This document shows, in pieces, positions 31,530 to 49,091 of a DNA stretch of 64,000 nt. Source of the stretch: a candidate division FCPU426 bacterium (lineage in GTDB: Bacteria; Oederibacteriota; Muellerivitia; Muellerivitales; Muellerivitaceae); contig CAWKAR010000003.1 of NCBI GenBank assembly GCA_963847625.1, forward strand, positions 64,001 to 128,000. The letters are read 5' to 3'. A program made the position numbers and the translations under genes. Every line of letters starts with the position of its first letter. Positions within the stretch are counted from its first letter, which is position 1. Below the pieces are notes generated by a model. The model saw nothing but the letters and a program-made list of their open reading frames with translations. It made no database searches and was not told the origin of the DNA.

Positions 31530-31616
31530 TGGTGCGGAAGGGGGGAGTTGAACCCCCATGAGGTTGCCCCCGCTAGAACCTGAATCTAGTGCGTCTGCCA
31601 ATTTCGCCACTTCCGC
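31530..31616 (-). tRNA. tRNA-Leu (CAG)
   Basis: GCGGAAG/CTTCCGC acceptor stem, CTAGA-TTCAGGT-TCTAG anticodon arm, long variable arm, GGTTCAACTCC, encoded CCA. Confidence 0.97.
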
Positions 31617-31729
31617 GTTAGGAAAAAACTTTTTGAAAATCTCGTAAAAGCCTTATGCTACAACAATTTCCGAACATCGTCCAAAAATACTTTTTTTCGT
31701 TCCATAAAAGTGAACCTCAAAAATACCCC

Positions 31730-31868
31730 TCCGTGTCTTATACGTGTCTTTCGTTTCCCGGAAAGCGAAATTTGTCGGTGTCTTATTCGGTCACTTTTCG
31801 GAAAAATTTTATCCGGCCCCCTCTCCGTGAAGTTTCAAAACACCCGTCCGTGTCTTATACGTGTCTTT
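31730..31868. repeat. 22-bp direct repeats (likely integrase arm-type sites)
   Basis: TCCGTGTCTTATACGTGTCTTT at 31730 and 31847, partial copy near 31775; GTGTCTT units 11 bp apart. Confidence 0.8.
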
Positions 31869-32960
31869 GGGATATTTGGAAGAGGGTTCAAAGCGAGTAT
31901 TATTCGCATCCACGAAGCCCCGGACCCTTTCCAAGGCTTCCAGCCGGTCCACCCGGTCCACTTGGTCATACCTCCTAAACATCGCGTGGGTCTTGTGGCC
32001 TGTAATGCTCATAATGACGCCTTCCGGAACGCCCGCCTTCCGCATATTCGTCACCGCGCAGTGGCGAAGATCGTGAAAATGAAAATCCTTCAATCCTGCC
32101 TTCCTGCAAGCGGTCTTAAATGCGGACCTCATATCCGTCAGCTTTTGACGCCTATAAGTGAAAACATACGGGCAACCCAAAACCCTCGGGATCTTCTTGA
32201 GAATTGTTCTTAGGTTTTCATCAAGGGGTATTTCCCTTTTCGCCTGGGTTTTCGTGTCTTCCGCCTCAAGCGTGATGATCCCTTGTTGAATATCCACTTG
32301 CTTAAACTCCAGCCCCATGATTTCACCCTTCCGCATTCCGGTAAAGTAAGCCAGCTCCACAATGGGTTTAAGGTGCATGGGACAATTCTCAATAAGGCTT
32401 TGGTATTGCTCAGGGGTAAGGGTCTTATCCCTTGGAGTTTCCTTAAAGAGCCTCAGGCCTTCAAGGGGATTCCTGTCGATTTGCCTGTTTAACAACGCCC
32501 TTCGGGCGATGGTCTTCAAGCAAGACAGGTCCCGATTAAGGGTCGTGCCCGTTAATTCCTTCCAGTGTTTATTGCCCTCTTTCCTCCTCCAGTTCAAGTA
32601 TTTTTCCACCAGGTCCAGGTTGATGCTCTCAAAAGCCCTGTTGCCGAAAAAAGCCTTGAGATTCCTAACGTAAAACCTGTCCTGCTGGAAACTTTTCTTC
32701 CTGGATTCGGAATAGGCCAAAAACGCGTCAGCAGCCTCGTTGAACGTTATTTTCGGCATTTCGACAGCCAAAAACTTGCCTTCAACGATGGTTTGCATGT
32801 GCTGGGCCAGCACCTTCTTGGCTTTTTCCAAGGGCACTTGTCCCAACCGGACCCTTTTCCTCTTTCTTAATCCCTCCTCCTGGACCACATAATCCAGATA
32901 GTATCCCCCTTCATCCTTTCGAAGATGTTGGGGTAAACCACGAACATTAGGTCTGCTCAT
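31809..32960 (-). CDS. Tyrosine recombinase/integrase
   Basis: Complete catalytic set: TGMRKGE, DTKT, HDLRH, GHKT, FRRY. Confidence 0.95.
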   Translation of the reverse strand: MSRPNVRGLPQHLRKDEGGYYLDYVVQEEGLRKRKRVRLGQVPLEKAKKVLAQHMQTIVEGKFLAVEMPKITFNEAADAFLAYSESRKKSFQQDRFYVRNLKAFFGNRAFESINLDLVEKYLNWRRKEGNKHWKELTGTTLNRDLSCLKTIARRALLNRQIDRNPLEGLRLFKETPRDKTLTPEQYQSLIENCPMHLKPIVELAYFTGMRKGEIMGLEFKQVDIQQGIITLEAEDTKTQAKREIPLDENLRTILKKIPRVLGCPYVFTYRRQKLTDMRSAFKTACRKAGLKDFHFHDLRHCAVTNMRKAGVPEGVIMSITGHKTHAMFRRYDQVDRVDRLEALERVRGFVDANNTRFEPSSKYPKDTYKTRTGVLKLHGEGAG

Positions 32961-33235
32961 TGTCCTCTCCTAATGTTCCTAGCAGAATTTATTTTAACAG
33001 GATTAGGCTCAATTTCCAAAGCCCCATTACCTGGGGGTTTATGGAACGTCCTTTGGAAATCCGAAAGCCATATCCTGGGATGTCGTCCGACTTTCACACA
33101 AGGCAAAGTGCCGGAATTTCGCCAGAATCGGACGGTACGCACCGGCACCTTTGCCATGAGGGCCACCTCTTCGTCCGTCATAAGGTCATCCTCCTCCCTT
33201 TTCCTTCTCTCGCTTCTTCTTCTATCCATCATCAT
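32957..33235 (-). CDS. Excisionase-like HTH protein
   Basis: LMTDEEVA...VPVRTVRFWRNSGTLPCVKVGR; ATGA overlap with the integrase. Confidence 0.8.
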   Translation of the reverse strand: MMMDRRRSERRKREEDDLMTDEEVALMAKVPVRTVRFWRNSGTLPCVKVGRHPRIWLSDFQRTFHKPPGNGALEIEPNPVKINSARNIRRGQ

Positions 33236-33286
33236 TGTTTTCCTGAAATGACTTGATAAGACTCAAAATCATCTGTTTTTTAAAAC

Positions 33287-33589
33287 TCAAGGGTTGCCTG
33301 GGGCCGATTCCTTCTTTTCGGCTTTCTTCTTGAATTCGGCTACAGCTGCCTTCTCTATTTCCGCCTTTGCCTTTTTGTTGGCGTTGCAAAAGTGGAAATA
33401 CTCCCCTTCCTTTTTGCCCGGCCTGGACGGGAAACCCACGAATAACCCATCCCCATCCTTCTTCTTCACCAATGTCAGGTCATTGAAGTAGAACTCATAA
33501 CTGGCAATGGCGACCTTCACGTCGAAAAACGCCTGCGTGTTCTCCCCTTCATAGGGGTACATCCTCGTAACCTTGACCTTTAAAGCCAT
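33287..33589 (-). CDS. SpoVG-like nucleic-acid-binding protein
   Basis: AFFDV, GLFVGFPSR, GEY and EIEKAAVAEF match the SpoVG pattern. Confidence 0.75.
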   Translation of the reverse strand: MALKVKVTRMYPYEGENTQAFFDVKVAIASYEFYFNDLTLVKKKDGDGLFVGFPSRPGKKEGEYFHFCNANKKAKAEIEKAAVAEFKKKAEKKESAPGNP

Positions 33590-33624
33590 GTGCTTCCTCC
33601 TTGAATTTTTTACTAACAGCCCAG

Positions 33625-35097
33625 CTACTTCTTCTTCGGCACCTCCTTGTCGGCAAGGGTGTTCCTGGCAAATTCCAAAGCATCGTTCCTCCCCTTCTCA
33701 TTGGCTGTTTCCAAATAGACCCACCAATTAGGGGAGCCTTTCTTGGTGGAATACTCGTGGAGGATTTCGAGAAGTTCAGGTGTGTATTTGATTGGTTTAG
33801 CCCCATTGCTCCTGGGCGTTCCCCTGAAGACCACCGTGTTCCGGCCTGAATCTTTAGCGGTATAAAGTCCGTGATCCGCCGCCGTAATAATTCCTTCCAG
33901 GTTGGTGCCGTCTTCCCCCCACTCAACTAGGGCTTGGCTAATGGTCACCGGGTAGTGGATGAGAAATAGATCGTCCTTCTTGTGATCGAAACCGTCCGTA
34001 AAGTGCCGGATGTCTTCCTTCTGGATGATTTCATTAGTCTCCGTCACCACCTTTCCCTCACAGTGCTTCCTGAATTCCTCCGCTTTTTCCATCGCTTCTT
34101 CTTCTGTCCCATCCAGCACCCAGACAATTTCCTCGCCGCCATACCTCCATATCCTGTTTTTGGTGAAGATTTGCTGGCCCGCCTTGGCCAAGGCTTTCAA
34201 GACGGCGTTTCCGACCTGGTGGTTGTAGTGGACGTCGTTGAAGGATTTGAAGAAGTCAATATCAGCCATCGCCAGAAAAAATTGGTTCTTCCTCCTAGCG
34301 GCCAAGGCGGGTATTTGCTGGACTGCCGCCCGGTCATTCAAAAGTCCCGTTCGATGATCCACCAAGGTTTCCTGCACTAAATCCTCCTGGGTGGTCTGGG
34401 TTTCCGATTCGGCCCTCATCTCCTTTTCCAGAAAGGGATCGAAAATTTGTGCGAAAAGCCATTTGAGGGGTTTGACCTTTTTCAGCTTCCCCAAGGCCTC
34501 ATTTCTTCTTTTCTTTTTAGCCATTTCATATAGGCGGGTAATTTTGGGGTCGCTAACGCCTGCCTGCATGAGGGTCGTGCAAAGGGTGATGGTGCGATGG
34601 AATTGGCCGCAGGCGTAATGGGAAACAGCCAAAAGGGTCAAATAGTTGTAGTTCTTGGGATACCTCAGGCTCAAAGTCTCGAACTTCTCCACGGCGGTTT
34701 CATATTTCCCGGTGCGAATGCACAATTCCGCCTCCAAAGCCACGGCATCGGGGAAATCCCTCTTCATGGCGAAAATCTCCCCTAAGCTTTCCCGGCAATC
34801 CGAATTGAGGCCCATTTGGAATTGGGCACGCGCAAGCAATACGAGGCTTTCAGGTGTCTTGGGGGAAAAGTTGTGGAGCCGATTGATCACCTTGAGGATG
34901 GAATGGGGTTGTTTGTACCTGGCGTAAATTTTGGCCGCTTCCAGGTGGGCTTCCACGTTCTGGGGCTGATGATTGGAGATAACCTCGTCAAAAAGCTTCA
35001 AGGCTTCCTTGAAACGGTTCGTCTCCATGCATAAATGCGCCGATTGAAGGCACCGCCTGGCCAATTCCGGGTTTATCTGCAATACGTTTTCTTCCAT
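33625..35097 (-). CDS. TPR-GGDEF dinucleotide cyclase
   Basis: N-terminal TPRs; DHRTGLLN, DIDFFKSFND, RYGGEEI, ADHGLYTAKDSGRN. Confidence 0.9.
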   Translation of the reverse strand: MEENVLQINPELARRCLQSAHLCMETNRFKEALKLFDEVISNHQPQNVEAHLEAAKIYARYKQPHSILKVINRLHNFSPKTPESLVLLARAQFQMGLNSDCRESLGEIFAMKRDFPDAVALEAELCIRTGKYETAVEKFETLSLRYPKNYNYLTLLAVSHYACGQFHRTITLCTTLMQAGVSDPKITRLYEMAKKKRRNEALGKLKKVKPLKWLFAQIFDPFLEKEMRAESETQTTQEDLVQETLVDHRTGLLNDRAAVQQIPALAARRKNQFFLAMADIDFFKSFNDVHYNHQVGNAVLKALAKAGQQIFTKNRIWRYGGEEIVWVLDGTEEEAMEKAEEFRKHCEGKVVTETNEIIQKEDIRHFTDGFDHKKDDLFLIHYPVTISQALVEWGEDGTNLEGIITAADHGLYTAKDSGRNTVVFRGTPRSNGAKPIKYTPELLEILHEYSTKKGSPNWWVYLETANEKGRNDALEFARNTLADKEVPKKK

Positions 35098-35101
35098 ATG
35101 G

Positions 35102-35698
35102 CTAAAACCTCTGGAAATCCGTCACGATCAGCTTTCCGTTCTCCCGTTTGACCACCACCACCAGGTGGAATGGCAACTCGATCTGGGAACCAGGCCCCCT
35201 GGCGTCCGAGTTGTAAAGGTTCTTCCCTATGACCTTCACCCAATAGTGAGTCCCGTCCGTGTTCTCCACACTTGAGCGGTCGATCTGCTGGTAGGAGACG
35301 TAGGCCTTGGTATCAGTAAGGAAAGCGACCCACTTGGGGTCTAGGAACGCCTCCTGGTAATAGGACATCATGTTGTCGCTCATGAGGTTCGCCACCTTGT
35401 CCACTTGGCGGTTGATGTCGGTGTAGCTGATGTTGAAAGCCATGATGGAAAACTTCTCGGCAAAGTCCGTTATGTCCCTGTATTGGGGGTCCTTATCCCC
35501 CGCCTGGGATTTCTCCCCGGTAACCTCTTTCTTGGAATCAGCCACATGTCCTGACCTTCCCCAAAACAGGGTGGAACCAAAACCGACCAGGGCAATAACG
35601 ATTCCAAAGATGATTTTTCCGGCATAACCCTTTTTCTCGGGTTCTTTATCGAGGAGATCAAGAATGTCATGTCCGTCTTCCTTTTTAGGTTCTGTCAT
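35102..35698 (-). CDS. VirB8-like bitopic membrane protein
   Basis: Single TM then an alpha+beta NTF2-like pattern ending KLIVTDF; directly after virB4. Confidence 0.55.
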   Translation of the reverse strand: MTEPKKEDGHDILDLLDKEPEKKGYAGKIIFGIVIALVGFGSTLFWGRSGHVADSKKEVTGEKSQAGDKDPQYRDITDFAEKFSIMAFNISYTDINRQVDKVANLMSDNMMSYYQEAFLDPKWVAFLTDTKAYVSYQQIDRSSVENTDGTHYWVKVIGKNLYNSDARGPGSQIELPFHLVVVVKRENGKLIVTDFQRF

Positions 35699-38268
35699 TT
35701 CATTACGACCCTATCCGGTTTATGGACAACCGGCTGCCCGTTTTTTTCCTTTGGGGCGGGTTTCAAGACGGTTTTGTTTTCCTTGTCCTCAATCCACTTG
35801 GCGATGGCCCCCAAAGTCGTAACCGGGTCCTCATCAGGGGCGTAAGTTTCCAGGTATTGATCGCGGATGGCGGCTTCTGGGCCATAGGTGGTTGCGATGT
35901 GGTAGGCCAGTTCGTCGGGATAGATGTTCACGATTCCCTGTCGGAGAGTCTGGTGGATCAGGGCTTGGGAATAGACACCTTTCACCAAATGCAGATTCAT
36001 GACCTTTTCCACTTGGTTTGGGTTTAGTTGTAAGAGTCCTTTGGCGTGGTCGATGTCATCCCCGACCAGCTTCAAGAGGATTTTTGTGGAGGTGTTCTTG
36101 AGGATGGCCTCAACACCCTTCACCCCGAAAAACTCCCCGATTTCCTGGGTGGCGAAAATGGGCTGGAGCCTCAAATGCCTGGCGGTTTTGGCAATCCTGA
36201 GAAGGAAGGCTAATCCAGCCGGGTATTGGGCCAGGTACCAGCACTCATCCATAGCAAGTTGGGATAACCGGTTCAGTTCCTTGTTCTGTTTGGCCTTCGA
36301 TAGGCAGTAATTGGAAATGACGAATACCGCCAAACCCACGGCTTTTTTGTCGTTGTCGCTGATGCCCGACGTGTCAAAAACAATGAAGGAATTGTCAGCT
36401 TTTACGGTGGATTCCCTATCCGTCAGGTTGGCGTACATCCCTTTGCCGGTGAAAAGCTTTAAAACCTCGGCTTGCTTGCGGCAGATATATTGAAACTCGG
36501 CGGGAACTTTCTTGTCGTCTGCGGTCTTCAATAAGGTTTCTTTTAGGTCGGTTAATAGGGGCACCCGCCCCTCGCCAATAGTGTTCCGGTAGGTTTGCTT
36601 GACGGCCTCCTGAAGAAGGGCCTTGTCCAATTCCTCTGATTCCTCAATGCGGTTGTCCTTGATGTTGGCCAGCACCACTCCCAGGTACATGATGATGCTT
36701 GAAATATGCTCCGAGTCGATTTCACCCTCCTTTTCCTTTATCTCGTCCAGGGGATAATCAAAGATATTCAGGTGGTGTTTGCTGTCCAGGTCGTAATTGA
36801 GGTATCTGCCCCCAGCCAACCGGCAAAGGGTTTTATACGATTGGGATTTGTCGATGATCATGATGTAGGGATTCATGGGAAGGTTCTTGATGAGAAGCTG
36901 GTTGATCGAAAAGGATTTCCCCGTGCCGGATGAACCCACGACAAGCACGTTCCAGTTCTCGGTTTCCCTGCCCCAAAGGTTCAAATGAACCATTTCGCCC
37001 GATAGGGTTTTTCCCAAGGGAACCCCGTCGGTATCGGCCAGGGATTCATATAAACAAGGAACTGCGTTGGCCATGACCGCCGTGGCCTGGAGATGCTCGT
37101 GGCCTGCAACATCCGTGGCTTGTGGAATAGTTGAAAGAAACAATCGTTTTTGTTCCGCGTAGCCTGAAAGGGGATGGACGTTCTTGAACATCCGGGAAAG
37201 GCTCTCATAACTTGAGGAAAGTTCCTTTTGGCTTTTGGAAAACAGGGTGATATAGAGGGAGAATTTGGCGAGTGATGTTTTCCTCTCGGAAACCAGTGAA
37301 AGGACGCTTTGGCGGTAATCCAGAGCCGCCTGGGCCTCGAAGTTCATGACGTTCTGGCGTTTCCACAAGGCCCCTTGGTCGCTTTGGATCTGTTTTTCAA
37401 CGATGGATTGTGCGCGGAACAGATCCACCCCTTTGATATAGAAGGAAACCTTGAAATCGTCGGTTCGTTCATAAAGTTCCTGGAAAAACAGGTTCTGCTC
37501 GTTGAAGGATGGGAATTCAGTCACATAAAGGGTTTTCCCATAGGTTTCACCCACTTTAAAAAACTTGGGGTCACTGAAATCCCAAGGAGTGGTGGAAAGG
37601 ATTTCACGCAAGGTTTGAATCCCGTATTCACCCCCTGAATAACCCGATGTTTTCTTGAACCTGTCGGGATTCCCCTGGAATCTTTCGAGGGACAGTTCTT
37701 CATATAAAAGGGTGAAGATTTCCTCTTCAGTTGCTTCCTGGGGCTCCAGACCTACGATGTTGAGTTGCGATACCCAGGATTTCCCCCGTCTGAGGACTTC
37801 CTCAATTGGGGAAACGTTCGTTTCCTTCTTCTTTTTTGCATCCATGCGTGTTTGAACTGTGAAGAGAACGTATGACCTGAAATGGCAAATCCTTTCATCC
37901 GCATAGAACCGCCTGAGCCAATTACCCAGGAATTCCGGGTACTGGTTCCTGAAAATTTCTGGTGCATTCTCGTGAATTCTTTCGTTATATCGTTGAATAA
38001 CATCCTCAACGTCGGCCAAAACCCTTTTTGTCAGGAATTGGACTTCCTCTCCGCTCCTCAAATCAGCCAGTACCGAGTCCAACTTCCTGACCTTTTCCCC
38101 CAACACTTCCGGGTCTTCCATCCAAGGGTTCAACCCACCGGCTAACTTGAATAGGCAGGCGTATTGGTCCGGGCTCCTCAAGACGAGGTATCCCGGCCCC
38201 ACCGACCGGATTCTCAACAACCCGGCGACAGGGTTGTTTCTGGTTTTTGATCCGAATAATCCCCTCAT
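35695..38268 (-). CDS. virB4: VirB4-family T4SS ATPase
   Basis: 857 aa; Walker A GSSGTGKS, IIDK, Walker B AMDECW, ARHLRLQPIFATQ. Confidence 0.85.
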   Translation of the reverse strand: MRGLFGSKTRNNPVAGLLRIRSVGPGYLVLRSPDQYACLFKLAGGLNPWMEDPEVLGEKVRKLDSVLADLRSGEEVQFLTKRVLADVEDVIQRYNERIHENAPEIFRNQYPEFLGNWLRRFYADERICHFRSYVLFTVQTRMDAKKKKETNVSPIEEVLRRGKSWVSQLNIVGLEPQEATEEEIFTLLYEELSLERFQGNPDRFKKTSGYSGGEYGIQTLREILSTTPWDFSDPKFFKVGETYGKTLYVTEFPSFNEQNLFFQELYERTDDFKVSFYIKGVDLFRAQSIVEKQIQSDQGALWKRQNVMNFEAQAALDYRQSVLSLVSERKTSLAKFSLYITLFSKSQKELSSSYESLSRMFKNVHPLSGYAEQKRLFLSTIPQATDVAGHEHLQATAVMANAVPCLYESLADTDGVPLGKTLSGEMVHLNLWGRETENWNVLVVGSSGTGKSFSINQLLIKNLPMNPYIMIIDKSQSYKTLCRLAGGRYLNYDLDSKHHLNIFDYPLDEIKEKEGEIDSEHISSIIMYLGVVLANIKDNRIEESEELDKALLQEAVKQTYRNTIGEGRVPLLTDLKETLLKTADDKKVPAEFQYICRKQAEVLKLFTGKGMYANLTDRESTVKADNSFIVFDTSGISDNDKKAVGLAVFVISNYCLSKAKQNKELNRLSQLAMDECWYLAQYPAGLAFLLRIAKTARHLRLQPIFATQEIGEFFGVKGVEAILKNTSTKILLKLVGDDIDHAKGLLQLNPNQVEKVMNLHLVKGVYSQALIHQTLRQGIVNIYPDELAYHIATTYGPEAAIRDQYLETYAPDEDPVTTLGAIAKWIEDKENKTVLKPAPKEKNGQPVVHKPDRVVMK

Positions 38269-38555
38269 ATTTCCAACTCGCTTGGTTCCCGCCCCGGGAA
38301 ATAACGCTTGGGTTCATTGTTGTACCGAATGATGTTTTCCAGGTGTCTTTCAGGCCAAAAACTTTTCATCACGAAGTAAAGGGTAGCCAGGATCAGGATT
38401 CCGAAAAAAATGACAAGGGAACCTTCCAGGCCCCAAAAGATCATGAAACCCACGAACGCGATGGCGTCCCCGATAAAAACAAACATCAATTTGTGGAAGT
38501 CCGAGGAATAGAAGAGCCCCCACATTTTGGATTCCTTCTCGAGGGGTATCGCCAT
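38265..38555 (-). CDS. VirB3/PrgI-like small membrane protein
   Basis: 96 aa, two TMs, overlaps the virB4 start. Confidence 0.6.
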   Translation of the reverse strand: MAIPLEKESKMWGLFYSSDFHKLMFVFIGDAIAFVGFMIFWGLEGSLVIFFGILILATLYFVMKSFWPERHLENIIRYNNEPKRYFPGREPSELEI

Positions 38556-40442
38556 TTAAACCGTCCTTTTCCCCTGGGGTCCTTGGGGTCCCTTCCATGG
38601 CCTTTTGTATTCCTTCCCCTGCTGGAGCTTTTTGGCGTAATCGCCAACAAGTTTTCTTTTCTCGTTTTCATTGGTTGAAAACGTCCCCGTACCTTGGGCA
38701 TCCCTCTTGAGGCTTCCCGCGATGACGTTCCCTGAGAATTTCTTGAGAAAACCGGAAACCGGGTTGTCCGAGTCTTCTCGCTTGGGTTTGCCGCCTAAAC
38801 CTCCCAATTTCGCGATTGTGTTTAATCCCTGCATGGACTTTTGCCCGGCCAAAGCTCCCCCGGCTGTCCCAATCCCTGGAATGATGGAACCCACCGCCGC
38901 GCCTGTTGCGGCTGCCATAGCCTGGCTTGTTTCACCCGTCATCGTCTTCATGGCCCCAAATGTCCCAAGTCTTGCCTTATTAGCCCCTAAAACAGCCCCT
39001 TTGGTGTCACGGGCGAATTCATTGATCCCTTCCCCTTTCAAATTCCCTCCCTTGAAGGATGTGAAAAGCGCCGCGAATTCCTGGGCGTTGGAGATCAATT
39101 GAAGGCCTGCCAGTACCGCCACCGCCGTCAACAAACTGTTTACCCCGATGGTTTCCACCCCCCAATTGATGTTGGGGATCAGGTAAAGGCCGACCAAGGT
39201 GATGGCCCAAATGACTGAATAGAGAAGGAGTTTCACGAAGTAGCGGGTCGCCGCCCCAAAGACGGGAGCAGTCGCGGGATGTCCCAGGCAGCCTATAAAA
39301 ATGGGGCCAAGGATGAACAAAACCCACAAGTTCAATACCTGGAAGAACTTCGCGAAAATGACCGCGAAACAAGTGATGAGCCCCCAAATGGCGACCCCGC
39401 ACTTGAGCAACCCGGCTGAAAATTCAGCCAACCTGCTCGTCGGCGCTGCCGCCGTCGTGTTACCCGCTGTCCCGATATTGGTGGAAGCCTGCCCTGATTG
39501 CTGAGGATATTGGGTCCCGTTGTCCTGAACTAATCCTTGGAGTGAAAATATGCCGGGAGTTTGATTACTGATGGTGTCGGCACCCTTTGAGATCAGTACA
39601 TGGACTAATGTGGGCATTCCAAGGATCAGGATGATCCCGCCCATGGCCTGGAAAAACCTGGAATTCCCTTTTTGGGAGTCCCCCGCCGAAATCGCCGAAT
39701 AGCAGTTGTAAAAACCGATCACCACCAGGCCCAAGGCAACCAGGTAAATCAGGTTCCAAATGACCCCCTGGACAGTAATGAAATTTCCCCGGAAGTCGTA
39801 TTGGGATAACTGGAAAGTGCTGGCCCCCCCATCCGCGTTCAAGTCGATATTCTGAAAACCTTCCAAAACTCCCGAAGTCCTCAAGGTGTTCTGGTTGTAG
39901 ATGTAGTAACCCATGGCCGTCACGCCGGTCGTCAGGTAGGAAAAAATTGTCGGCCAGGCGAATAAACACAGAAACGCCGCCACGAATCCGATGACAAGGC
40001 TTGGGTCCACGAACCGGTTCCAAAGGCCGGATGACCTTTGCCCCGTGTCGATCACGAACCCCACAATGAGGATGAAAAGGCCCGTTCCGCTAGAAATCTT
40101 CAGGAGATTCAGAACCACCTGGACGGCGTTTGCGCCCATATTGTTGGTCAATGCGTTGTAGGTATTGGGCGAGGCCAAATTCGGGATATAGATGAGGAAA
40201 GTGCCGATGTACTTGTCGTAAATCTTGAAAAGGGTTTGTAATGCCCAATCCCCAATCTTATCCATCCCCTGGGCGACCCAATCCCCCGCGTGTTTGGCCA
40301 TGGCGTCGAAAATCCCACCCGAGACCCCCTGCTCGATGGTCTGTGAGGATGGGCCGCTGTCGGTGGATAAAAGCGATACGGCATTAGCCCTTGGGGCTCC
40401 CAAAAGGCATATGAAGATGAGGGGTAGGAGCCGCTTGACCAT
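38556..40442 (-). CDS. VirB6/TrbL-like polytopic membrane protein
   Basis: Signal peptide, many TMs, WVLFILGPIFIGC motif, Gly/Ala-rich basic tail. Confidence 0.7.
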   Translation of the reverse strand: MVKRLLPLIFICLLGAPRANAVSLLSTDSGPSSQTIEQGVSGGIFDAMAKHAGDWVAQGMDKIGDWALQTLFKIYDKYIGTFLIYIPNLASPNTYNALTNNMGANAVQVVLNLLKISSGTGLFILIVGFVIDTGQRSSGLWNRFVDPSLVIGFVAAFLCLFAWPTIFSYLTTGVTAMGYYIYNQNTLRTSGVLEGFQNIDLNADGGASTFQLSQYDFRGNFITVQGVIWNLIYLVALGLVVIGFYNCYSAISAGDSQKGNSRFFQAMGGIILILGMPTLVHVLISKGADTISNQTPGIFSLQGLVQDNGTQYPQQSGQASTNIGTAGNTTAAAPTSRLAEFSAGLLKCGVAIWGLITCFAVIFAKFFQVLNLWVLFILGPIFIGCLGHPATAPVFGAATRYFVKLLLYSVIWAITLVGLYLIPNINWGVETIGVNSLLTAVAVLAGLQLISNAQEFAALFTSFKGGNLKGEGINEFARDTKGAVLGANKARLGTFGAMKTMTGETSQAMAAATGAAVGSIIPGIGTAGGALAGQKSMQGLNTIAKLGGLGGKPKREDSDNPVSGFLKKFSGNVIAGSLKRDAQGTGTFSTNENEKRKLVGDYAKKLQQGKEYKRPWKGPQGPQGKRTV

Positions 40443-40805
40443 TCAACTCCCCGACAGGACGGAACTGACGGGTTTCGCCCCGAATTCGCCCGCCTTGAGG
40501 ATAACGACGTTCAAAACAACTCCCGCCATGAGGATTCCCACGATGGCCAGGACGCTTCCCCAAACCCTGTCCTTGGCAGTCGTATCCCCCTTGCTGGATT
40601 CGGCCAGGTGGTCCAGGACGTTCTTGACGCACATCAAAATCTTCCAAAGACCGTAGGCGTCCAGGAGAAACAGGATAATCATCTTGAGCGGAGACAATTC
40701 CGGCATACTGGTCAAGGCCTGGGATCGGGCATCACTCGTGTACATATATATCCAAGCCGTAATCCAGACCGTCTTTATCCAAACCAACCTGTTTCTTATC
40801 CTCAT
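40443..40805 (-). CDS. VirB2/TrbC-like pilin
   Basis: 120 aa; leader, then two hydrophobic helices around a charged GD loop; abuts the virB6-like gene. Confidence 0.55.
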   Translation of the reverse strand: MRIRNRLVWIKTVWITAWIYMYTSDARSQALTSMPELSPLKMIILFLLDAYGLWKILMCVKNVLDHLAESSKGDTTAKDRVWGSVLAIVGILMAGVVLNVVILKAGEFGAKPVSSVLSGS

Positions 40806-40822
40806 GTTTTAACTCCTTCAAT

Positions 40823-41683
40823 TTATTGGGCTGACGGTGCCCCGCCAGCGTTAGCCGACCCCTGGGATTGCAGTTGCTTGACGTTGACGCCCCCCAATTG
40901 TTGGAGGGCGGCGCTTCCCCCGGTTTGAATCGTGTTGGTCCCGGCGGTAGTTAGCGCCGTTCCCGAATTCTGCCCGGACCCAAGGGATGTCCCCAATTGC
41001 TGTCCCGTCCCCAAGAGAGAACTTAAATTCGGTATCCCTAGTGCCTGTAAAAGCTGGGAAACCACCAGGGTTCCCAGGATTCCACCCAAACTGGCTATGA
41101 CCGCCCCGACAACCTGGTTGAAGGCCAGGGCCAATTGGCTTTCACTTTGGGAGGGCTGGTATCCGGGGGCAACATAAGGTTGGGGCAGGGCCGCAACCTG
41201 GTTGGCCGCTTGGTCGGCTCCCTGGATGTTCCCCGACTGCAAGGCCTGGGCTTCCTGGGTGTAAAGAGCCCCCGCCTGCTGGAACTGGGGGTCATCGCTT
41301 TGTTGCAACTGGACAGCGTATTGCTGGAGTTGGCTGGCACTCTGGGGCGCGAAAGCTGTCCCGGCGGTATTGGCCAGTTGCTGGCTCAAGAGGGAAAGAC
41401 CCTGCATGACCTGGCATTTCACCCAATTGGAATGGCTGGCTTCGTTATATTGGTTAGCCGTAAAGATGTGGAGTTTCCGGGGGACGGGGGCATAACTTCT
41501 CACGACCGCCCTCGCGGGATCGGCCTTGGGAAACTGGGAAAGCTGTTTCATGAGCCAGTCCCTAAAATCCACAACGTTCGCCTTCAAGGCCTCCTCTATT
41601 TTTGGGTCATCGGGAACAGGACTGGCGAAAACAGGCATGTGGGCCAGTGATAAAAGGAGTAAGGGGATTAAAACCTTCTTCAT
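40823..41683 (-). CDS. Secreted Gln/Ala-rich helical protein (possible VirB5-like)
   Basis: Signal peptide ending VFA; Q-rich helices; late hydrophobic segment. Confidence 0.5.
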   Translation of the reverse strand: MKKVLIPLLLLSLAHMPVFASPVPDDPKIEEALKANVVDFRDWLMKQLSQFPKADPARAVVRSYAPVPRKLHIFTANQYNEASHSNWVKCQVMQGLSLLSQQLANTAGTAFAPQSASQLQQYAVQLQQSDDPQFQQAGALYTQEAQALQSGNIQGADQAANQVAALPQPYVAPGYQPSQSESQLALAFNQVVGAVIASLGGILGTLVVSQLLQALGIPNLSSLLGTGQQLGTSLGSGQNSGTALTTAGTNTIQTGGSAALQQLGGVNVKQLQSQGSANAGGAPSAQ

Positions 41684-42123
41684 ACCGCCCCCTTTTTCTT
41701 CAAGGCGAAAAACAATTCCGCTAGTTCCTCGTGCCTTTCAACACCTGATAGGGCAACTCCAAACGGCTCCACACCCGGGACTTCGATAAACAAGTCACCA
41801 ATATTGAAAAGCTTTTGGACAAGGTTTTGTTTACAGGTGATATTGATGATCTTGTCGTAAGGAATGGATCTCGTTCGCTTGACCAGGATTCCAGAACGGA
41901 TTTCAAACCAATCCGGCTTAATAATGAACTTGGTAGTAGCTAGGAATAACCAAACGCAAAGGAATAGGAAGACTTCAAGAATCCAGAATCCCCTGAGGAC
42001 ATAGACAAGCCTCACGCCTTGGGGGACCAAAAGGAACAAGGCCAAGGGAACGATGAAGACAGAAAGATATTGGAAAAAGGATGGATGCAGTACCCTGAAA
42101 TTTTCCGAAATGTTCTGTTCCAA
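41680..42123 (-). CDS. Membrane protein with bacterial PH domain (bPH_2-like)
   Basis: Two TMs, then SGIL...IPYDKIINI...QNLVQKLFNIGDL. Confidence 0.8.
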   Translation of the reverse strand: MEQNISENFRVLHPSFFQYLSVFIVPLALFLLVPQGVRLVYVLRGFWILEVFLFLCVWLFLATTKFIIKPDWFEIRSGILVKRTRSIPYDKIINITCKQNLVQKLFNIGDLFIEVPGVEPFGVALSGVERHEELAELFFALKKKGAV

Positions 42124-42136
42124 AACTCACCTTTGA

Positions 42137-42658
42137 TTAATAGAGTTGAACGAATGCCGGATCGCTGTCCTGGGTGACATAAACGGTCAATCCAAAATCC
42201 TTGATATAGGGCCGGTCTACCCTGATCCGACACTTGTAGGGGTTGTCCGTGGGCGTACCCCCTTTAAGGAAAACTTCCCTGGTGGATTGGCGCTTCAAAA
42301 GCCATCCCTGGATGGTTTGGTCACTTGAAATATCGATGATGAAATTGGGGCCTAAATTCGTTACCAAGGCGCTGACCTTGGCCACATCGGTTTCGGTTTG
42401 GAAGTTGACGGCTTGGATCTGGAAAGGGGTTGGGGTGGGAAGGGCCTGTGGTCTGCTTCTTTTTACCCGATGGGTGCCTGAAGTTTCCCCGCTTGGATTT
42501 CCAGCCCAGGATTCATCCGGGGCCTTATGTTCCATGACCTGCTCAATGGCCCATTGGTCCCTTTCCCGGACTGCCATAAAGGGGTTCTCATCCACAAAGA
42601 CCGGTGTTAGGGTCAAAAGAATCAGGGGTACGAAGTACCCTCGAAAGAGGGTCCTCAA
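42137..42658 (-). CDS. Hypothetical exported protein
   Basis: N-terminal hydrophobic segment, PTPTP linker, beta-rich C-terminus; overlaps the upstream stop. Confidence 0.6.
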   Translation of the reverse strand: MRTLFRGYFVPLILLTLTPVFVDENPFMAVRERDQWAIEQVMEHKAPDESWAGNPSGETSGTHRVKRSRPQALPTPTPFQIQAVNFQTETDVAKVSALVTNLGPNFIIDISSDQTIQGWLLKRQSTREVFLKGGTPTDNPYKCRIRVDRPYIKDFGLTVYVTQDSDPAFVQLY

Positions 42659-43872
42659 AACTGAACCCCCGTATCAATGCTGAAGGCGTAAGTGTTGTAA
42701 CCAGGTGAAAGAAGAGGAATTTCAAGCCCGTTTGTCTCGTTCCCGCCCCCGACCGGCATGGTTAAGGGCGTATTGATGTTGGAGTGATTCAAACGGGCAA
42801 AAGTGAAATCACCCATGGAATCAGTGACGTTGAAATCGATGAAAATGGAACGGATTCTTATCCGCGCCTGTCCATACAAAGCCCTTTGGGGAAGCTGCGC
42901 GGAAGGCGGGTCAATTCCGTTCCCCCCGGTAAAGGGATTATTGGGGTTGTCAGCAATCGGAATCTGAGCCTCCAGGATGATCCGGTCCAGGGACAGGAAG
43001 TGCCAAGTGAAAAGATGTTCTCCCCTAGCCCCAAAGGTGAAAGCGTTTGTGTCGCCTGAATGGGCGGAGTCCTGCACGCCGTACTCGAAGTAAAGGGTGT
43101 AGTCCTTGGCGAAATTAGCCTCGCCGCAAATGGAATAAGCCGGGTTACCACTCATGGAGGAATACTGGAAATCATCCGCCGCGCTGGCCCCAAGGTTGAA
43201 AAGAAGAACCGTCCGAAGATCCCCAAAATTGAGTTTCATCCGGAGCTGCCCCATGAAATACCCTTGTGAGCCGTCAATGACCGCGTCCTGGGCTGAAAGG
43301 AGCGTCGGGAAATAAAAGAAACTCAACGACGTCGGAGGGCTGGAGACGCTCTTATAATCCTCCACCCCAAAAAAGAACTTGAAGGGGATATATAGCTTGA
43401 TCCCGTCCAGACGCCTCAAGCCCATTAAGGTGTAACGCCCGAAAAAGTGGGTGGTGCTGGCGATATCCGATAAATCCATCCGTCCAATCCGAGCCTCCAT
43501 CCAAGGTTCAGACAGGGAGAAATTCGCCTCCCTTAACTGAAGGCCTACCCCGTCATCGGACGAGGAAAAGGATTTGGTGACCCTAATCGTTCCTTGCGCC
43601 GAAACGTCGTTCTCGTCGAGTTTTCGGACAGCGGAAAGGTCGAGCAAGGAAAACCCAAGGTTCCCTGACGCGTCACTCCCGTAGTGGGCCGCGACGGTCG
43701 CGTTGAGGACCTTGGAATCGTTGTCCACGTGGGGCGGCGGAACCCAGTTTGGTTTAGGTGTCGCAGTGGGACTAGGGGTGGGGGTTGGTGTTTTCTTCCC
43801 TTTGGGTTTTGCATATACGGAAGTAACGTTTATCAAAACCAGCAGACAGAAAAAGTAAAATATCTTTTTCAT
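42655..43872 (-). CDS. Putative outer-membrane beta-barrel
   Basis: Signal peptide; alternating beta strands (LREANF, ARIGRM, LYFEYG); terminal Phe (DTGVQF). Confidence 0.65.
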   Translation of the reverse strand: MKKIFYFFCLLVLINVTSVYAKPKGKKTPTPTPSPTATPKPNWVPPPHVDNDSKVLNATVAAHYGSDASGNLGFSLLDLSAVRKLDENDVSAQGTIRVTKSFSSSDDGVGLQLREANFSLSEPWMEARIGRMDLSDIASTTHFFGRYTLMGLRRLDGIKLYIPFKFFFGVEDYKSVSSPPTSLSFFYFPTLLSAQDAVIDGSQGYFMGQLRMKLNFGDLRTVLLFNLGASAADDFQYSSMSGNPAYSICGEANFAKDYTLYFEYGVQDSAHSGDTNAFTFGARGEHLFTWHFLSLDRIILEAQIPIADNPNNPFTGGNGIDPPSAQLPQRALYGQARIRIRSIFIDFNVTDSMGDFTFARLNHSNINTPLTMPVGGGNETNGLEIPLLSPGYNTYAFSIDTGVQF

Positions 43873-43887
43873 TTAAATAAACCCTTT

Positions 43888-44649
43888 TCAAGGGATGGTG
43901 TAGGAGACCAGCATTTTCGGCTTTTGCTGGCCGTTCCCCGTGTTATCCCAAAACGAGATGAAGCCTGAAAGCGACCCGCTTGTTTCCGGTTCCGGCGAAA
44001 TCAAAACCCCGTAATTGTTGTTGGACTTGTTCACCCAAACCTGGGCAAGAGACGGCTTAATGTTCCAGGCAAGGAGAACTTGGGTGGCGTTCACCTGAGA
44101 GGCGGTAACAGTCACCGCGTCCATATACGCCTGGTTGTAATCCACTCCCGCCGTAATGGGAGAACTGGTTCCCCCATTCCAGCCATATGGGGATACAAGG
44201 ACATTCCAGGTGCTTGAGTCGTTCCAAGGCACTTGGCCGGCTGGAGGTGGTATGACTTGGTGGATGCCGAAAACGTAAGTACCATCGGAAAGATTCGTGG
44301 TGGTTTCCGTGGCCATTTGGAGGCTCACGGCGGTTATGGTGGCGTTGGAGGGTATGCCGTAAGAAAGGTCGAACCTTACTAGTCCCAATGCTGCGTTCGC
44401 CGTTGTTGATCCCGTGGCGACCTTAATCTGGCCTGTCCCCTGTGCGGAATTGGGGTTGCTTCCATCCAGCCAATGGGTATCCGCCCCCCCATACCCCGAA
44501 TCGGGGTAAACCCCGTTTTCAAATACCATTGAATACGTTGGGATGGTCGGTCCCGCTGGTCCCTGGGGCCCGGCCGGGCCTGCTGGACCCTTTTCGCAAC
44601 CCGCTAGGGTCAGCGCCAAAATCAAGCCAACCGCTGTATTTATCTTCAT
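43888..44649 (-). CDS. Lipoprotein with collagen-like repeats and DNRLRE-like domain
   Basis: LAGC lipobox, (GPx)5, ADT...LVRFDLS...IPSNATITAVSL...NYGVLI...PKMLVSY. Confidence 0.7.
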   Translation of the reverse strand: MKINTAVGLILALTLAGCEKGPAGPAGPQGPAGPTIPTYSMVFENGVYPDSGYGGADTHWLDGSNPNSAQGTGQIKVATGSTTANAALGLVRFDLSYGIPSNATITAVSLQMATETTTNLSDGTYVFGIHQVIPPPAGQVPWNDSSTWNVLVSPYGWNGGTSSPITAGVDYNQAYMDAVTVTASQVNATQVLLAWNIKPSLAQVWVNKSNNNYGVLISPEPETSGSLSGFISFWDNTGNGQQKPKMLVSYTIP

Positions 44650-44707
44650 ATGGCCTTCCTTTAAAAGGTTTTTCCTACAAGCGGGCACTAAAAGGTTAAT
44701 TTTTGTA

Positions 44708-45802
44708 TTAGTAGTGCGCTTGCAATAACTGTGTCGTGCCGCTTGATGGGATATTGGTTGTTTGCGATTGCCCATCGAAAGAAACGTTGAGCGCTCCCGT
44801 GGACCCGCCGCTTGTGATTGTGCAGGCATAGGAACCCGGTGCGAATTGCAGCGTTGCCCCACCACAGTTTGAGGCTCCAATGGTGCCGTTTGGCGTTTGG
44901 AGTTGGTTCTGGCAGCAGTCCCCGGCGTTCCAGGAAACCGTCACCACGGCACTGGAAGTGCAGCCATTGGCGAGGGAAACATTTAAGTTTCCCCAAATCA
45001 GATACATTTGCGCGGCGCTCATGATGGCGCATAAGCTTTGATACACGTAAGTGGTCGTCCAAGAGACCGTTACGGTCGAGTTAAAGCCTTTGGTAATGGT
45101 CTGGGGTGAACTGTAGGCCCGGGGATAAGGTGTGGGTTCCAAGTCGAGGGCAGTTACCGAGAAACTAGGTGGGGTGTCCACGCAATTGACCCCGGTGACG
45201 GTAACCGAGGCCGTATCGGCGCTTCCATATCCAATCGTCGCGGGTCCGTAGGTTCCGTTCCAATTCGTCGGGAATGCCGAAAAAGCGATCTTCCCTGGGA
45301 TCAACAGGTTTCCCGGTTGGCTATAGATGAGGTGGTAGGTGAAAGGATTTCCTGGATTCGTGGAAGTGAAAGATTCCGGCACGGTCGGGGTCAAATAAAT
45401 CGTCGCACCCGCCGAATTGAAATTGGCTGTCTGATTTGCGACGGAGACTGGCATGGTGATGGTGCTGGGGGCGAATGGAAACGGCGTTTGAGCTGGAACC
45501 ACAAAAGTCCAATTTCCAATATCCAACCATGCCGGGTTAAAGGTTGCGATCCCGCTGGCCGTGGTCGATTGGCTGTAGACCGTCACCCCAGAAGGCGGTA
45601 TCGCCTTCACCAACACATTGGGAACCCCAATCCCTTTATCCTCCACGAATGCGCTCACAGAGCCATGGATTTGTTCAGGAGTTGGCGTAAAGGCGACATC
45701 GTAAGGGACTGATGGGCCGCGATTAGATTGGCAGCCTATAAAACAGATTCCTAGAATTTCCGACAGAAAAAGCGTTGTAACAATAAGCCAAGTTTTATTC
45801 AT
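44708..45802 (-). CDS. Beta-rich (Ig-like) surface lipoprotein, first gene of the operon
   Basis: FIGC lipobox, Ser/Thr-rich strands, Cys-containing C-terminal part; SD GGAGG. Confidence 0.65.
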   Translation of the reverse strand: MNKTWLIVTTLFLSEILGICFIGCQSNRGPSVPYDVAFTPTPEQIHGSVSAFVEDKGIGVPNVLVKAIPPSGVTVYSQSTTASGIATFNPAWLDIGNWTFVVPAQTPFPFAPSTITMPVSVANQTANFNSAGATIYLTPTVPESFTSTNPGNPFTYHLIYSQPGNLLIPGKIAFSAFPTNWNGTYGPATIGYGSADTASVTVTGVNCVDTPPSFSVTALDLEPTPYPRAYSSPQTITKGFNSTVTVSWTTTYVYQSLCAIMSAAQMYLIWGNLNVSLANGCTSSAVVTVSWNAGDCCQNQLQTPNGTIGASNCGGATLQFAPGSYACTITSGGSTGALNVSFDGQSQTTNIPSSGTTQLLQAHY

Positions 45803-45903
45803 ATAGCACCCTCCATATGAGCCGACGGGCCCTCATTGTTTAACCGAATTGCTTTTGCCCATGTGCCGAGGATGAGATTTTTAAACATTTTTGAAACATT
45901 GAC

Positions 45904-45938
45904 CAGGACTTCAAAGTCCACCGGACTTTGAAGTCCTG
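45904..45938. promoter_or_regulatory. Double-palindrome operator between the operon and the XRE gene
   Basis: CAGGACTTCAAAGTCC-acc-GGACTTTGAAGTCCTG is a perfect 16-bp inverted repeat; each arm contains GGACTT-N2-AAGTCC. Confidence 0.8.
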
Positions 45939-45971
45939 TTGTCACTTTTCGTTTTGAACTACCAATTCCAA

Positions 45972-46316
45972 ATGCCTTATTCAGACCCTTCCGAAATATC
46001 GTTCCTAATGGAAATCCAACAAATCATCTCCAATAAAAGGGCCGGAAAAGGTTTCGGCCAGGAGTATCTTGCCGAGAAAGTGGATGCGTGCGACCGCCAA
46101 GTCCGGCGATGGGAACATAAAACGGAAGCGATTCAAATCAATATTTTGTATTTGTACAGGCTCGCGAAAATTTTCGACTGTTCAATCCATGATCTTTTGC
46201 CGTATGACCCTGTTTATGGCGGCAACGGGAATAAAGCAGTTAGCAGCCTTGAAAAAGCCGGAAATAAACAAGACCGGCTGGACATTACGGGGCCGTCCCA
46301 GGAGAAAAAAGAATGA
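45972..46316 (+). CDS. XRE-family HTH regulator
   Basis: KRAGKGFGQEYLAEKV...VRRWE...LYRLAKIFDCSIHDLL; divergent from the operon; start uncertain. Confidence 0.8.
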   Translation: MPYSDPSEISFLMEIQQIISNKRAGKGFGQEYLAEKVDACDRQVRRWEHKTEAIQINILYLYRLAKIFDCSIHDLLPYDPVYGGNGNKAVSSLEKAGNKQDRLDITGPSQEKKE

Positions 46317-46509: not shown

Positions 46510-47310
46510 TTAAATTAAATCAAGGAATGCATTTATCTTTTCAAAAGAGTCCCTGCGTAATCTTTCTTTTTCTGCGTCATCCACCTCATAAGAATTGGCT
46601 ACATCCATAGGTCCAACATGTTTTTCCGTTAAAAAAGCATTACGGATTTTTTCCAAACCTTCTTTGACCAATAGGTTATCGGCATGACCTTTAAACTCGG
46701 CGGCAAGACCCTTGAACCCGCCCGGATAATAAAGCACGCAAAAATAGATGTCATAGGCATCCTTGGGTTTGAAACGACCGGCCAAAGCCATGCCTTTCAT
46801 AACGATAAAACTCACAATGGAAGCCACTCGGATCATAACCCTATCCTGGCTTCCCGAAGGAAGGGTGCCATCCATTGTAATTTCAACTGGGCTTTCAAAC
46901 GCCAAATCGCAACCGCGCGCCTTACGGGCTTTCAATCCTTGTATTTTTTGATGCCGATGCCTTTTGCCCGTGCCTGAATATTCACCGGCAAGAAGATCAA
47001 CGAAAACTGGTATTCCCCTCACTTTTTTCTGGTATTGAAACGGCTTCTCGGTCCTTTCATATCCGGCGCCCAAAAGAAGTTTCTCGATTTTTTGATACCC
47101 CGCATCCCGGAGTTTCCGGTGATCCAAGGCCAAATCAACGTCGGTACTGCCAATATGATTTTCCATGGCGTCCGGCAGGATGAGCGTCGGCACCCAGCCG
47201 CCCACTAAAACGATATTTTCACGGTACTCACCCAATAGATGGGCGCACTCGATGAGTACCGATTTGGCCGCCTCAACCACCTCTTGTGAATAACCGCTTA
47301 AATTTGCCAT
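46510..47310 (-). CDS. AbiEii-like nucleotidyltransferase toxin
   Basis: VLVGGW, STDVD and KPKDAYDIYF motifs. Confidence 0.8.
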   Translation of the reverse strand: MANLSGYSQEVVEAAKSVLIECAHLLGEYRENIVLVGGWVPTLILPDAMENHIGSTDVDLALDHRKLRDAGYQKIEKLLLGAGYERTEKPFQYQKKVRGIPVFVDLLAGEYSGTGKRHRHQKIQGLKARKARGCDLAFESPVEITMDGTLPSGSQDRVMIRVASIVSFIVMKGMALAGRFKPKDAYDIYFCVLYYPGGFKGLAAEFKGHADNLLVKEGLEKIRNAFLTEKHVGPMDVANSYEVDDAEKERLRRDSFEKINAFLDLI

Positions 47311-48395: not shown

Positions 48396-48770
48396 TTGTT
48401 GAAATAGTACTATTTAATGAAAATTATGTCAATATTCACTATTTATTATAAGTTTATGTCTCTACAGACCACCCTGTTTATACTGGTTTTGTGACTTTCT
48501 AAGGAAAAATGGATTTTTGCAGTGTTATTGAAAAGGGCTGGAATTTTCCCATCGCCGGCTAACACGAAAAGAATGAAGTGGATCTGCGGGAAGTTCAAGG
48601 CGGGGAAAGGGTGAGAAATGCCCCACACAATCATTAGACGAAACAATGGCCGTAAAGGTTCCGCCATAACCGAGGTTAAAATTGGCCTTTTTCCCTTGTC
48701 CAATACACCTCCCCCAAGTGGACAAGCTAGACCTTGAAACAGAAACCGCACCTGTTATTAACAACAACTT

Positions 48771-49091
48771 TTATGATTTAACCATAATCAACATCATCTT
48801 AAACCGCTCCGTTGCCTTCAGGGCATGCGGCTTGTTAGCCGGCATTAATATCATCTCACCCGCTTTAACATGAGAGGGTTTTCCCTCTATCGTAACTTCC
48901 GCCTTCCCGTCAAAAATATAAACCAATGCGTCAAAAGGGGCCGTATGCTCGCTTAATCCCTGCCCCTTGTCAAAAGCGAAGACGGTCACGGTTCCTTTGT
49001 CCTTGCGTATAATTTCTTTGCTGACAACAGAACCATCTTGATAGTTCACCGATTCAACTAATACTTGGACCTGCCCAATGAAGCTTTCCAT
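48771..49091 (-). CDS. Cupin domain protein
   Basis: FAFDKGQGLSEHTAPFDA, MPANKPHAL. Confidence 0.88.
   Translation of the reverse strand: MESFIGQVQVLVESVNYQDGSVVSKEIIRKDKGTVTVFAFDKGQGLSEHTAPFDALVYIFDGKAEVTIEGKPSHVKAGEMILMPANKPHALKATERFKMMLIMVKS

Follow-up and report, generated by a model that had tools for sequence, protein, structure and literature searches.

A type IV secretion operon of a candidate division FCPU426 bacterium as the likely mating-pair module of an undescribed family of integrative and conjugative elements

Homologs of VirB10 are reported in all diderm classes of mating-pair formation (MPF) system (PMC4027160), and monoderm systems fall into two clades (PMC3548315), other systems being described in which DNA is transferred by VirB4 and VirD4 plus unknown parts (PMC12857230). 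Relaxases of the MOBC type, examples of which are TraX of pAD1 and MobC of CloDF13, belong to the PD-(D/E)xK nucleases (PMC12857230), and PF13814 is recognized as MobC (PMC5357655). The present study concerns an operon encoding VirB-like proteins in a 64,000-nucleotide stretch of DNA, referred to as the window, from a candidate division FCPU426 bacterium (assembly GCA_963847625.1, contig CAWKAR010000003.1, positions 64,001 to 128,000), which a first-pass annotation had interpreted as a relaxase-less minimal type IV secretion system (T4SS).

That interpretation is supported in part: the operon and the lack of VirB9 and VirB10 were confirmed, while the lack of a relaxase does not extend to the family. 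It is considered likely that the operon represents the right-hand MPF and excisionase-integrase (Xis-Int) module of an undescribed integrative and conjugative element (ICE) family, and that the window copy is orphaned at a tRNA-Leu(CAG) gene. The family displays three ICE features, namely, attachment site (att) repeats at both ends, VirB4-type mating-pair genes, and a coupling protein inside the element; the kind of element is thus known, and the MPF class of the family is possibly an unclassified one. No description of the gene set was found in the literature searched, which included few subscription papers and no supplements. The genome of the window (G000) is an assembly of 63 contigs (C-numbers), of which C3 holds the window; other G-numbers denote genomes of relatives and L-numbers individual loci, and the main searches covered 41 genomes.

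Coupling protein and relaxase in complete elements

Relatives of the window's VirB4 were found in 12 of the 41 genomes, all 12 of which also carry a VirD4 and a relaxase-like gene, and homologous elements equipped with both, an eventuality raised by the annotation itself as contrary to its reading, do exist. Pfam and NCBIfam scans did confirm that the window itself harbors no recognizable relaxase, VirD4, VirB9, or VirB10. The tight packing of the operon, which had been taken to speak against a deletion, is uninformative with regard to gene loss because the VirD4 and relaxase genes of close relatives sit outside the operon. On contig C14 of G000, VirD4 (TraG-D_C, 45.1 bits) and then a 269-residue relaxase-like gene product are encoded after the integrase, and VirD4 exceeds the cut-off at eight places in this genome, most of which are followed by a relaxase-like gene.

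Contig C4 of relative G002 harbors a tandem pair of elements, 65 and 49 kb long, between tRNA-Thr repeats at positions 131762, 197213, and 245911, both of which begin with the VirD4-relaxase pair and end with the MPF-Xis-Int genes, with UmuDC, ArdC, SRAP, CBASS-like, and restriction genes as cargo between these ends. In another family, a 43-kb element located between a tRNA-Lys 5' fragment and tRNA-Lys (G033:C31) holds VirD4 (45 bits) and the relaxase (hhalign, 98.1%). All three elements bounded by att repeats on one contig (two in G002 and one in G033) thus carry VirD4 and the relaxase near the att site opposite to the MPF genes. The full layout in these relatives reads att, VirD4, MOBC-like relaxase, cargo, XRE gene, MPF operon, cyclase, SpoVG or single-strand DNA-binding protein (SSB), Xis, Int, and att, the usual cargo comprising toxin-antitoxin, UmuDC, ArdC, RadC, and defense genes, and the tRNA targets of the family include Leu, Gly, Thr, Phe, and Lys. 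Within G000, a VirD4 gene comes after tRNA-Thr on C11, and a tRNA-Thr fragment closes the operon on C52. In a divergent clade, the VirD4-relaxase pair follows the operon on the same contig (G019:C47, G019:C87, G016:C66, and G001:C14), and in G055 a weakly relaxase-like gene (hhalign, 34%; E of 4e-4) ends the operon after TopB and SSB.

The 269-residue protein is very probably a divergent MOBC relaxase, as judged from its sequence relatives and its modeled fold. The model (pLDDT, a predicted local distance score, of 91.3) comprises a winged helix and a restriction-nuclease-like PD-(D/E)xK domain, and matches SdaI (Z of 8.6, root-mean-square deviation [rmsd] of 4.0, 128 residues aligned) and the nickase N.BspD6I (Z of 8.4). 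Residues H104, D129, E131, D170, E187, and E189 are invariant, and the acidic triad (D170/E187/E189) and restriction-nuclease-like domain of MOBC relaxases are both present, the latter at a Z score of only about 8.5. Clusters holding Replic_Relax members at 17 to 29% in the top three account for 23 of 30 Atlas matches, and among the 65 longer of 87 profile homologs, which were scanned against PF13814, 28 match and 16 exceed the cut-off, one of those that pass being related to the relaxase family profile at an E value of 1.6e-55. A PDB sequence search with the relaxase profile returned nothing significant, and no solved MOBC relaxase was among the fold-search matches listed, an absence which excludes nothing.

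Since the VirD4-relaxase pair stands first and the MPF-Xis-Int genes last, excision would place the former behind the integrase. It is envisaged that the XRE-controlled operon would switch on the pore, Xis, and Int together, and that excision would join Int across attP to the VirD4-relaxase pair, which would have the same orientation. The origin of transfer (oriT) would then be nicked by the relaxase, and VirD4 would pass the DNA strand on to a channel of VirB2/3/4/6/8; the pilus would traverse the outer membrane without VirB9 or VirB10, while the lipoproteins would hold the partner cell, the cyclase would tune adhesion or motility, and Int would insert the circle into a tRNA gene.

Mobility is suggested by comparison of G000 with G001, which share a 9,491-base part of the C19 operon at 99.99% identity, compared to 82 to 87% for the flanking thrS region, and in which the C19 copy and its counterpart each reach the same tRNA-Gly in their own chromosome; this shared block points to recent transfer between the two species. 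Contig C14 carries one att site, its ends lie 118 bases apart in G001:C16, and no terminal overlap was found; it looks like an excised circle, although collapsed tandem copies would look alike. No excision joint was found among the metagenome contigs examined (four DNA runs of one study, no RNA run being listed), though many relatives were present.

A number of additional observations relate to these elements. G000:C14:1-60567 (L001 and L002) resembles a circularly permuted whole ICE with a single att site, the cargo of which includes HipAB and a type I-E-like CRISPR-Cas locus with an array, the cas names being assigned by reading of the sequences. The gene for a second integrase type (G000:C14:38959-39000; L047:17863) runs into the start of tRNA-Gly(GCC), its end therefore being located inside the att site, and several tRNA-Gly 5' fragments are present on C14, C15, and C29. 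The first ICE on G002:C4 encodes a CBASS-like patatin and DncV-type cyclase (L051:3677-6677), with a WYL pair and FtsZ-like and GmrSD genes nearby, and the cargo of G000:C52 (L003:2022-5301) includes a PLD gene along with a Thoeris-type macrodomain and an ADP-ribosyltransferase domain of the HYD1 type, probably for phage defense. In the divergent clade, a 383-amino-acid gene product of no known family, a ParA-like protein, and ParB are encoded before VirD4 (L096:611-3795, G001:C14), which suggests replication and partition of the excised form.

The operon and its passage across the envelope

The 15 minus-strand open reading frames (ORFs) between 45802 and 31809, as well as the divergent XRE gene, are present where the annotation had placed them. 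Their packing is indeed tight, with gaps of -4 to 61 bp under re-chosen starts rather than the maximum of 58 bp claimed. The features of the window are as follows:

31530..31616, minus strand, tRNA-Leu(CAG), right junction (attR), the first 41 bases of which (31576-31616) are the duplicated core
31617..31868, minus strand, element arm between integrase and tRNA, with repeats
31809..32960, minus strand, tyrosine integrase (PF00589, 101.5 bits)
32957..33235, minus strand, excisionase-like helix-turn-helix protein, Xis (HTH_17 PF12728, 34.5 bits; TIGR01764 below cut-off)
33287..33589, minus strand, SpoVG-like protein (PF04026, 27.8 bits, below the cut-off of 29.6)
33625..35097, minus strand, TPR-GGDEF nucleotide cyclase (GGDEF, 66.4 bits, and TPR)
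35102..35698, minus strand, VirB8-like bitopic protein (weak homolog and profile matches)
35695..38268, minus strand, VirB4 ATPase of an unclassified lineage (P-loop_TraG, 93.1 bits)
38265..38555, minus strand, VirB3/PrgI-like membrane protein (position; weak PrgI matches of homologs)
38556..40442, minus strand, VirB6-like polytopic protein (TrbL/VirB6 PF04610, 26.8 bits; cut-off, 25.9)
40443..40805, minus strand, VirB2-like pilin (same-position genes in relatives match T4SS_pilin/TrbC below cut-off; alignment)
40823..41683, minus strand, secreted Gln-rich helical protein (alignment)
41680..42123, minus strand, membrane PH-domain protein, accessory (bPH_2 PF03703, 52.2 bits)
42137..42658, minus strand, exported protein of 173 amino acids after the barrel gene (alignment)
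42655..43872, minus strand, porin-like outer-membrane beta-barrel (predicted fold)
43888..44646, minus strand, collagen-repeat/DNRLRE lipoprotein (NF033679, 50.1 bits)
44708..45802, minus strand, variable lipoprotein, first gene of the operon (position and comparison of elements)
45939..46316, plus strand, divergent XRE regulator (Pfam/NCBIfam)
46510..48395, minus strand, AbiEii/AbiEi toxin-antitoxin cargo (Pfam)
48400..64000, no strand assigned, accessory DNA, collinear with none of five relatives

Copies of the operon occur in G000 on C3, C14, C19, and C52, most proteins being 84 to 98% identical and the C52 copy being frameshifted, in addition to a partial copy on C36 and a 30%-identical form on C61; the XRE gene is likewise placed in the C14, C52, G002, and G001 copies. 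Gene order is conserved in all 21 metagenome loci as far as each extends, a few being without the PH or DNRLRE gene, and recurs at about 25 to 30% identity in families f3, f7, and f23 in the order barrel, exported protein, helical protein, pilin, VirB6, VirB3, VirB4, VirB8, and TPR-GGDEF. Among 99 genomes from the phylum, 31 encode members of the barrel family, and the porin-like barrel, the lipoproteins, and the TPR-GGDEF cyclase represent core genes across several of its families, whereas the PH gene is absent from L043, L158, L159, L163, and the divergent clade. Synonymous codon differences between the window and C14 copies exceed nonsynonymous ones in all eight genes compared (227 versus 38 for VirB4), and by this comparison the genes of the window operon are intact and under purifying selection. 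This excess, together with the recurring order, indicates that the operon is not a chance arrangement.

Several of the assignments are based on homologs, as the window's VirB8, VirB3, and pilin have no Pfam or NCBIfam match of their own. Two of 17 VirB8 homologs match DotI/IcmL (best E of 0.0017, below cut-off), with weak matches to TcpC, and the VirB8 family profile matches the IcmL-like structure 5cnl at an E value of 0.028; VirB3 homologs match PrgI at 5.8e-4, again below cut-off. In the PDB sequence search, the helical-protein profile yielded no match below an E value of 0.49 for the secreted Gln-rich protein, whose possible role as a VirB5-like tip subunit is conjectured from its place in the operon and its composition, and the exported protein profile gave nothing significant. 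The collagen/DNRLRE lipoprotein and the variable lead lipoprotein, the gene for which is duplicated in some elements, are both probable adhesins. Certain elements carry a short additional TPR-only gene ahead of the TPR-GGDEF gene, and some carry two SpoVG genes (L055:2246-2590; L187:5028-5717). Elsewhere in the window, 25483-28227 specifies a tandem pair of lipoprotein paralogs that have long Thr/Pro linkers, Gly-rich termini, and no Pfam match, and an approximately 100-base noncoding repeat at 46291-46398 recurs on C52, C46, C21, C13, and C34.

The host possesses the diderm markers Omp85 (BamA, 183 bits) and LpxC (302 bits), and the absence of VirB9 and VirB10 in such a host is the real oddity of the family. 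VirB10 (PF03743) was detected in none of six genomes (0 of 1 and 0 of 5) of 89 to 99% completeness in which controls were detected, and VirB9 (PF03524) was not detected in the one genome searched. The annotation's statement that neither is recognizable also holds in complete elements: profile scans of 84 ORFs, mostly from the two complete G002 elements, found neither, a very divergent form being possible. Alignment by hhalign of the operon's unassigned ORFs with one TraB, one TraK, and one TraV gave no match, at low power, the positive controls for the TraK comparison also being weak. Systems that combine VirB4 and VirD4 with unknown parts (PMC12857230) provide loose precedents for a case without VirB10.

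The barrel, the model of which (pLDDT of 62) matches trimeric porins at Z scores of 17 to 19 (best Z of 19.3, rmsd of 3.7, 268 residues aligned), is the obvious candidate for outer-membrane passage; no VirB10 was among the fold-search matches listed, an absence which excludes nothing. A complex prediction of barrel and exported protein scored 0.00 and gave no answer either way. A paralogous barrel, with a TPR-fused exported partner and lipoproteins and without VirB4, was found in 9 of 20 barrel loci fetched, and given these VirB4-free loci the operon barrel may export adhesins rather than pass DNA. We presume a likeness between the operon barrel and lipoprotein-export barrels. One such locus (L015, G000:C48:4327-8634) encodes a paralogous barrel, a TPR-fused exported protein, and two lipoproteins but no VirB4, and loci of this type possibly constitute a system for the export of surface lipoproteins that belongs to no named family.

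In all lineages observed, the cyclase is encoded after VirB8. It retains the metal Asp, the Asn, and GGEE (as GGEEI), and shares the DIDFFK..N..H..G and GG[D/E]E motifs with the diguanylate cyclases PleD and WspR and with the Hypr GGDEF cyclic GMP-AMP (cGAMP) synthases (PMC6456294), unlike which it is encoded by a core gene of a transfer operon. The guanine-reading Asp is replaced by Asn in the window's clade and retained in distant clades; the base-reading site sets product specificity in GacA, and Asn at this site is not covered in the accessible portion of that source (PMC6456294). Two distant families have a canonical SSB in lieu of SpoVG, the SSB of G033 (121.8 bits) coming after the cyclase and that of G055 (86.8 bits) after TopB, by virtue of which the SpoVG-like protein probably serves as the single-strand DNA-binding protein of the element.

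Status of the window copy and rival explanations

Only 190 bp separate the end of the integrase gene from the 5' end of tRNA-Leu(CAG), a proximity which the annotation had missed, and the integrase of G001 at the same site is 96% identical. The window copy restores the tRNA from the 5' side, as do several family members, unlike typical islands in Islander, where 5'-side islands are rare (159 of 3,919; PMC4383910). The element arm contains a 32-base direct repeat (31720-31751 and 31837-31868) and three AAGACAC repeats (3 in 214 bases versus 0.12 per kb for four 7-mers counted), which are probably integrase arm sites, and shares 76 bases at about 80% with a junction on C29, where the identical 41-base core lies beside rnr (G000:C29:59193). 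All six relatives fetched possess the empty site, smpB-rnr, tRNA-Leu(CAG), and M16 peptidase; in G000, tRNA-Leu and the M16 peptidase gene are on C3, and rnr with the identical 41-base 5' half is on C29.

The accessory DNA at 48400..64000 yielded no match to VirD4, relaxase, ArdC, UmuCD, or RadC, C3 from 151 to 169 kb is host backbone collinear with G001, and neither C3 nor C29 past the junction specifies VirD4 or the relaxase. The arm after the tRNA fragment of C29 shows 81% likeness to the G019:C81 VirD4 leader, while the 32 kb of C29 past the junction contain a tRNA-Gly junction and DNA rich in insertion sequences (ISs) instead of VirD4. A 100% identical, inverted duplicate of 46639-47840, within the AbiE cargo, lies at G000:C3:145920-147121, near the switch to backbone, and is a likely rearrangement scar. 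With the left junction on another contig and host backbone in between, the window copy is most likely an orphaned right half that was severed from its left end when the chromosome was rearranged. As such, it is probably unable to move on its own, yet able to provide a pore to sister ICEs and to the small VirD4-relaxase-Xis-Int elements of its genome. G000 contains at least six small VirD4b-relaxase elements or fragments (on C56, C16, C4, C30, C17, and C18), in four of which Xis-Int of the window's integrase family follows. Small VirD4-relaxase(-Xis-Int) elements of this kind lie at tRNA genes and resemble integrative and mobilizable elements (IMEs), some with restriction or toxin-antitoxin cargo. 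The annotation's alternative of help in trans thus fits the window copy, with roles likely reversed: the copy would supply the pore, being itself without DNA-processing genes.

It is unlikely that the window copy is complete and functional as an ICE, with its VirD4-relaxase end on C20 or C15 and the break being an assembly artifact. All 15 genes are intact and under purifying selection, unplaced VirD4-relaxase pairs are present on C15 and C20, and G001 carries such a pair, oriented inward, at a distance of 50 kb to the inner side of the same left junction; against this, the intervening 50 kb in G001 is only putative element cargo, host backbone occurs on the same contig 40 kb past the operon, and C29 lacks VirD4 over the distance given above. 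Still less probable is a stable partnership in which pore-only (MPF-Xis-Int) units and VirD4-relaxase-only elements conjugate in trans as a two-part system. While the small G000 elements, the occurrence of relaxase-like genes in 20 of the 41 genomes versus 12 for VirB4, and an MPF block without VirD4 on G001:C1 agree with such a partnership, every element bounded by two att sites carries both halves, no pore-only unit with two att sites was found, and the small elements would be ordinary IMEs (PMC5357655). The annotation had also considered an integrase acting as relaxase, DNA uptake, or a signaling or effector channel, none of which is needed because homologous elements carry a relaxase and VirD4. 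Such integrase-as-relaxase or nonconjugative use (uptake, contact signaling, or protein delivery) is very improbable: relaxase-poor T4SSs are known in Patescibacteria (PMC12102498), the G025:C30 operon has no adjoining integrase, and a cyclase gene lies inside the operon, but VirD4, the relaxase-like gene, ArdC, UmuDC, and SSB or TopB travel with the operon, the tRNA sites are many, and near-identical copies exist in two species.

The assignment of the operon to an ICE family with an orphaned window copy must itself be weighed against several results. None of 16 of the family's own relaxase members exceeds the PF13814 cut-off (best E of 0.034), a PF13814 family search of G000 was empty in a setting where no positive control responded, Z scores near 8.5 are middling, and the motif search revealed no oriT motif common to the ICEs and small elements upstream of VirD4. 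MPF blocks with no VirD4 close by do occur: on G001:C1, none lies between two operons or in the preceding 30 kb, and the G025:C30 operon lacks the barrel and lipoproteins as well as the integrase. The left part of the window copy is untraceable in an assembly of 63 contigs in which C29 terminates within an IS, a join of C29 to C3 via contig ends not being achieved, and misassembly among near-identical copies is conceivable.

Relation to known systems

The family resembles tyrosine-integrase/MOBC ICEs in its tRNA-targeting Int with Xis, its VirD4 with an adjoining PD-(D/E)xK relaxase candidate, its VirB4 operon, and its ArdC/UmuDC/RadC accessory genes, and differs from them in a relaxase below the PF13814 cut-off and in the location of the VirD4-relaxase pair and the pore at opposite ends. 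Compact VirD4-relaxase-Xis-Int elements on C56, C16, C4, and C30 recall the streptococcal class-8 IMEs (VirD4, MobC, and integrase; PMC5357655), though with a tyrosine rather than a serine integrase, a likeness which concerns partner elements and not the window.

With MPF_FATA and the T4SSs of Patescibacteria the family shares a small VirB2/3(PrgI-like)/4/6/8 set without VirB9 or VirB10 (PMC12102498, PMC4027160). Its VirB4 forms a clade of its own (support of 100/98), the sister group of which, weakly supported at 86/94, consists of three monoderm references, in a small tree of eight references with no member of the T, G, C, FA, or I classes. Unlike those systems, the family has a host with BamA and LpxC, is mobile and relaxase-bearing, adds a barrel, lipoproteins, and a cyclase, and showed no wall hydrolase in Pfam scans of the window and element ORFs; the likeness to the relaxase-poor Patescibacteria T4SS is thus one of gene set and not of mobility. 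A two-membrane host, a pilin, and VirB3/4/6/8 are shared with the diderm classes T, F, G, I, B, and C, none of which the family fits on the VirB10 test, no VirB10 having been found in it, and its VirB4, the identity of which to plasmid VirB4s does not exceed about 25%, falls below every NCBIfam cut-off. We tentatively raise the possibility, which we regard as doubtful at present, of a ninth conjugative class, in which a monoderm-type inner channel would operate across one two-membrane phylum, with a recruited porin-like barrel and lipoproteins replacing VirB7/9/10, and would be turned on together with a cyclic-dinucleotide signal of its own (the nucleotide specificity of which would be altered in the clade of the window), VirD4 and the relaxase being expressed only once excision has brought them to a position behind the operon.

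As VirB10 is described in all diderm classes, a mobile family without it raises the question of how DNA passes the outer membrane. With a relaxase below the Pfam cut-off and a VirB4 below those of NCBIfam, profile scans may miss or mislabel such elements, and the family warns against relaxase-less T4SS calls based on a single window. These elements carry defense and CRISPR cargo between uncultured species.

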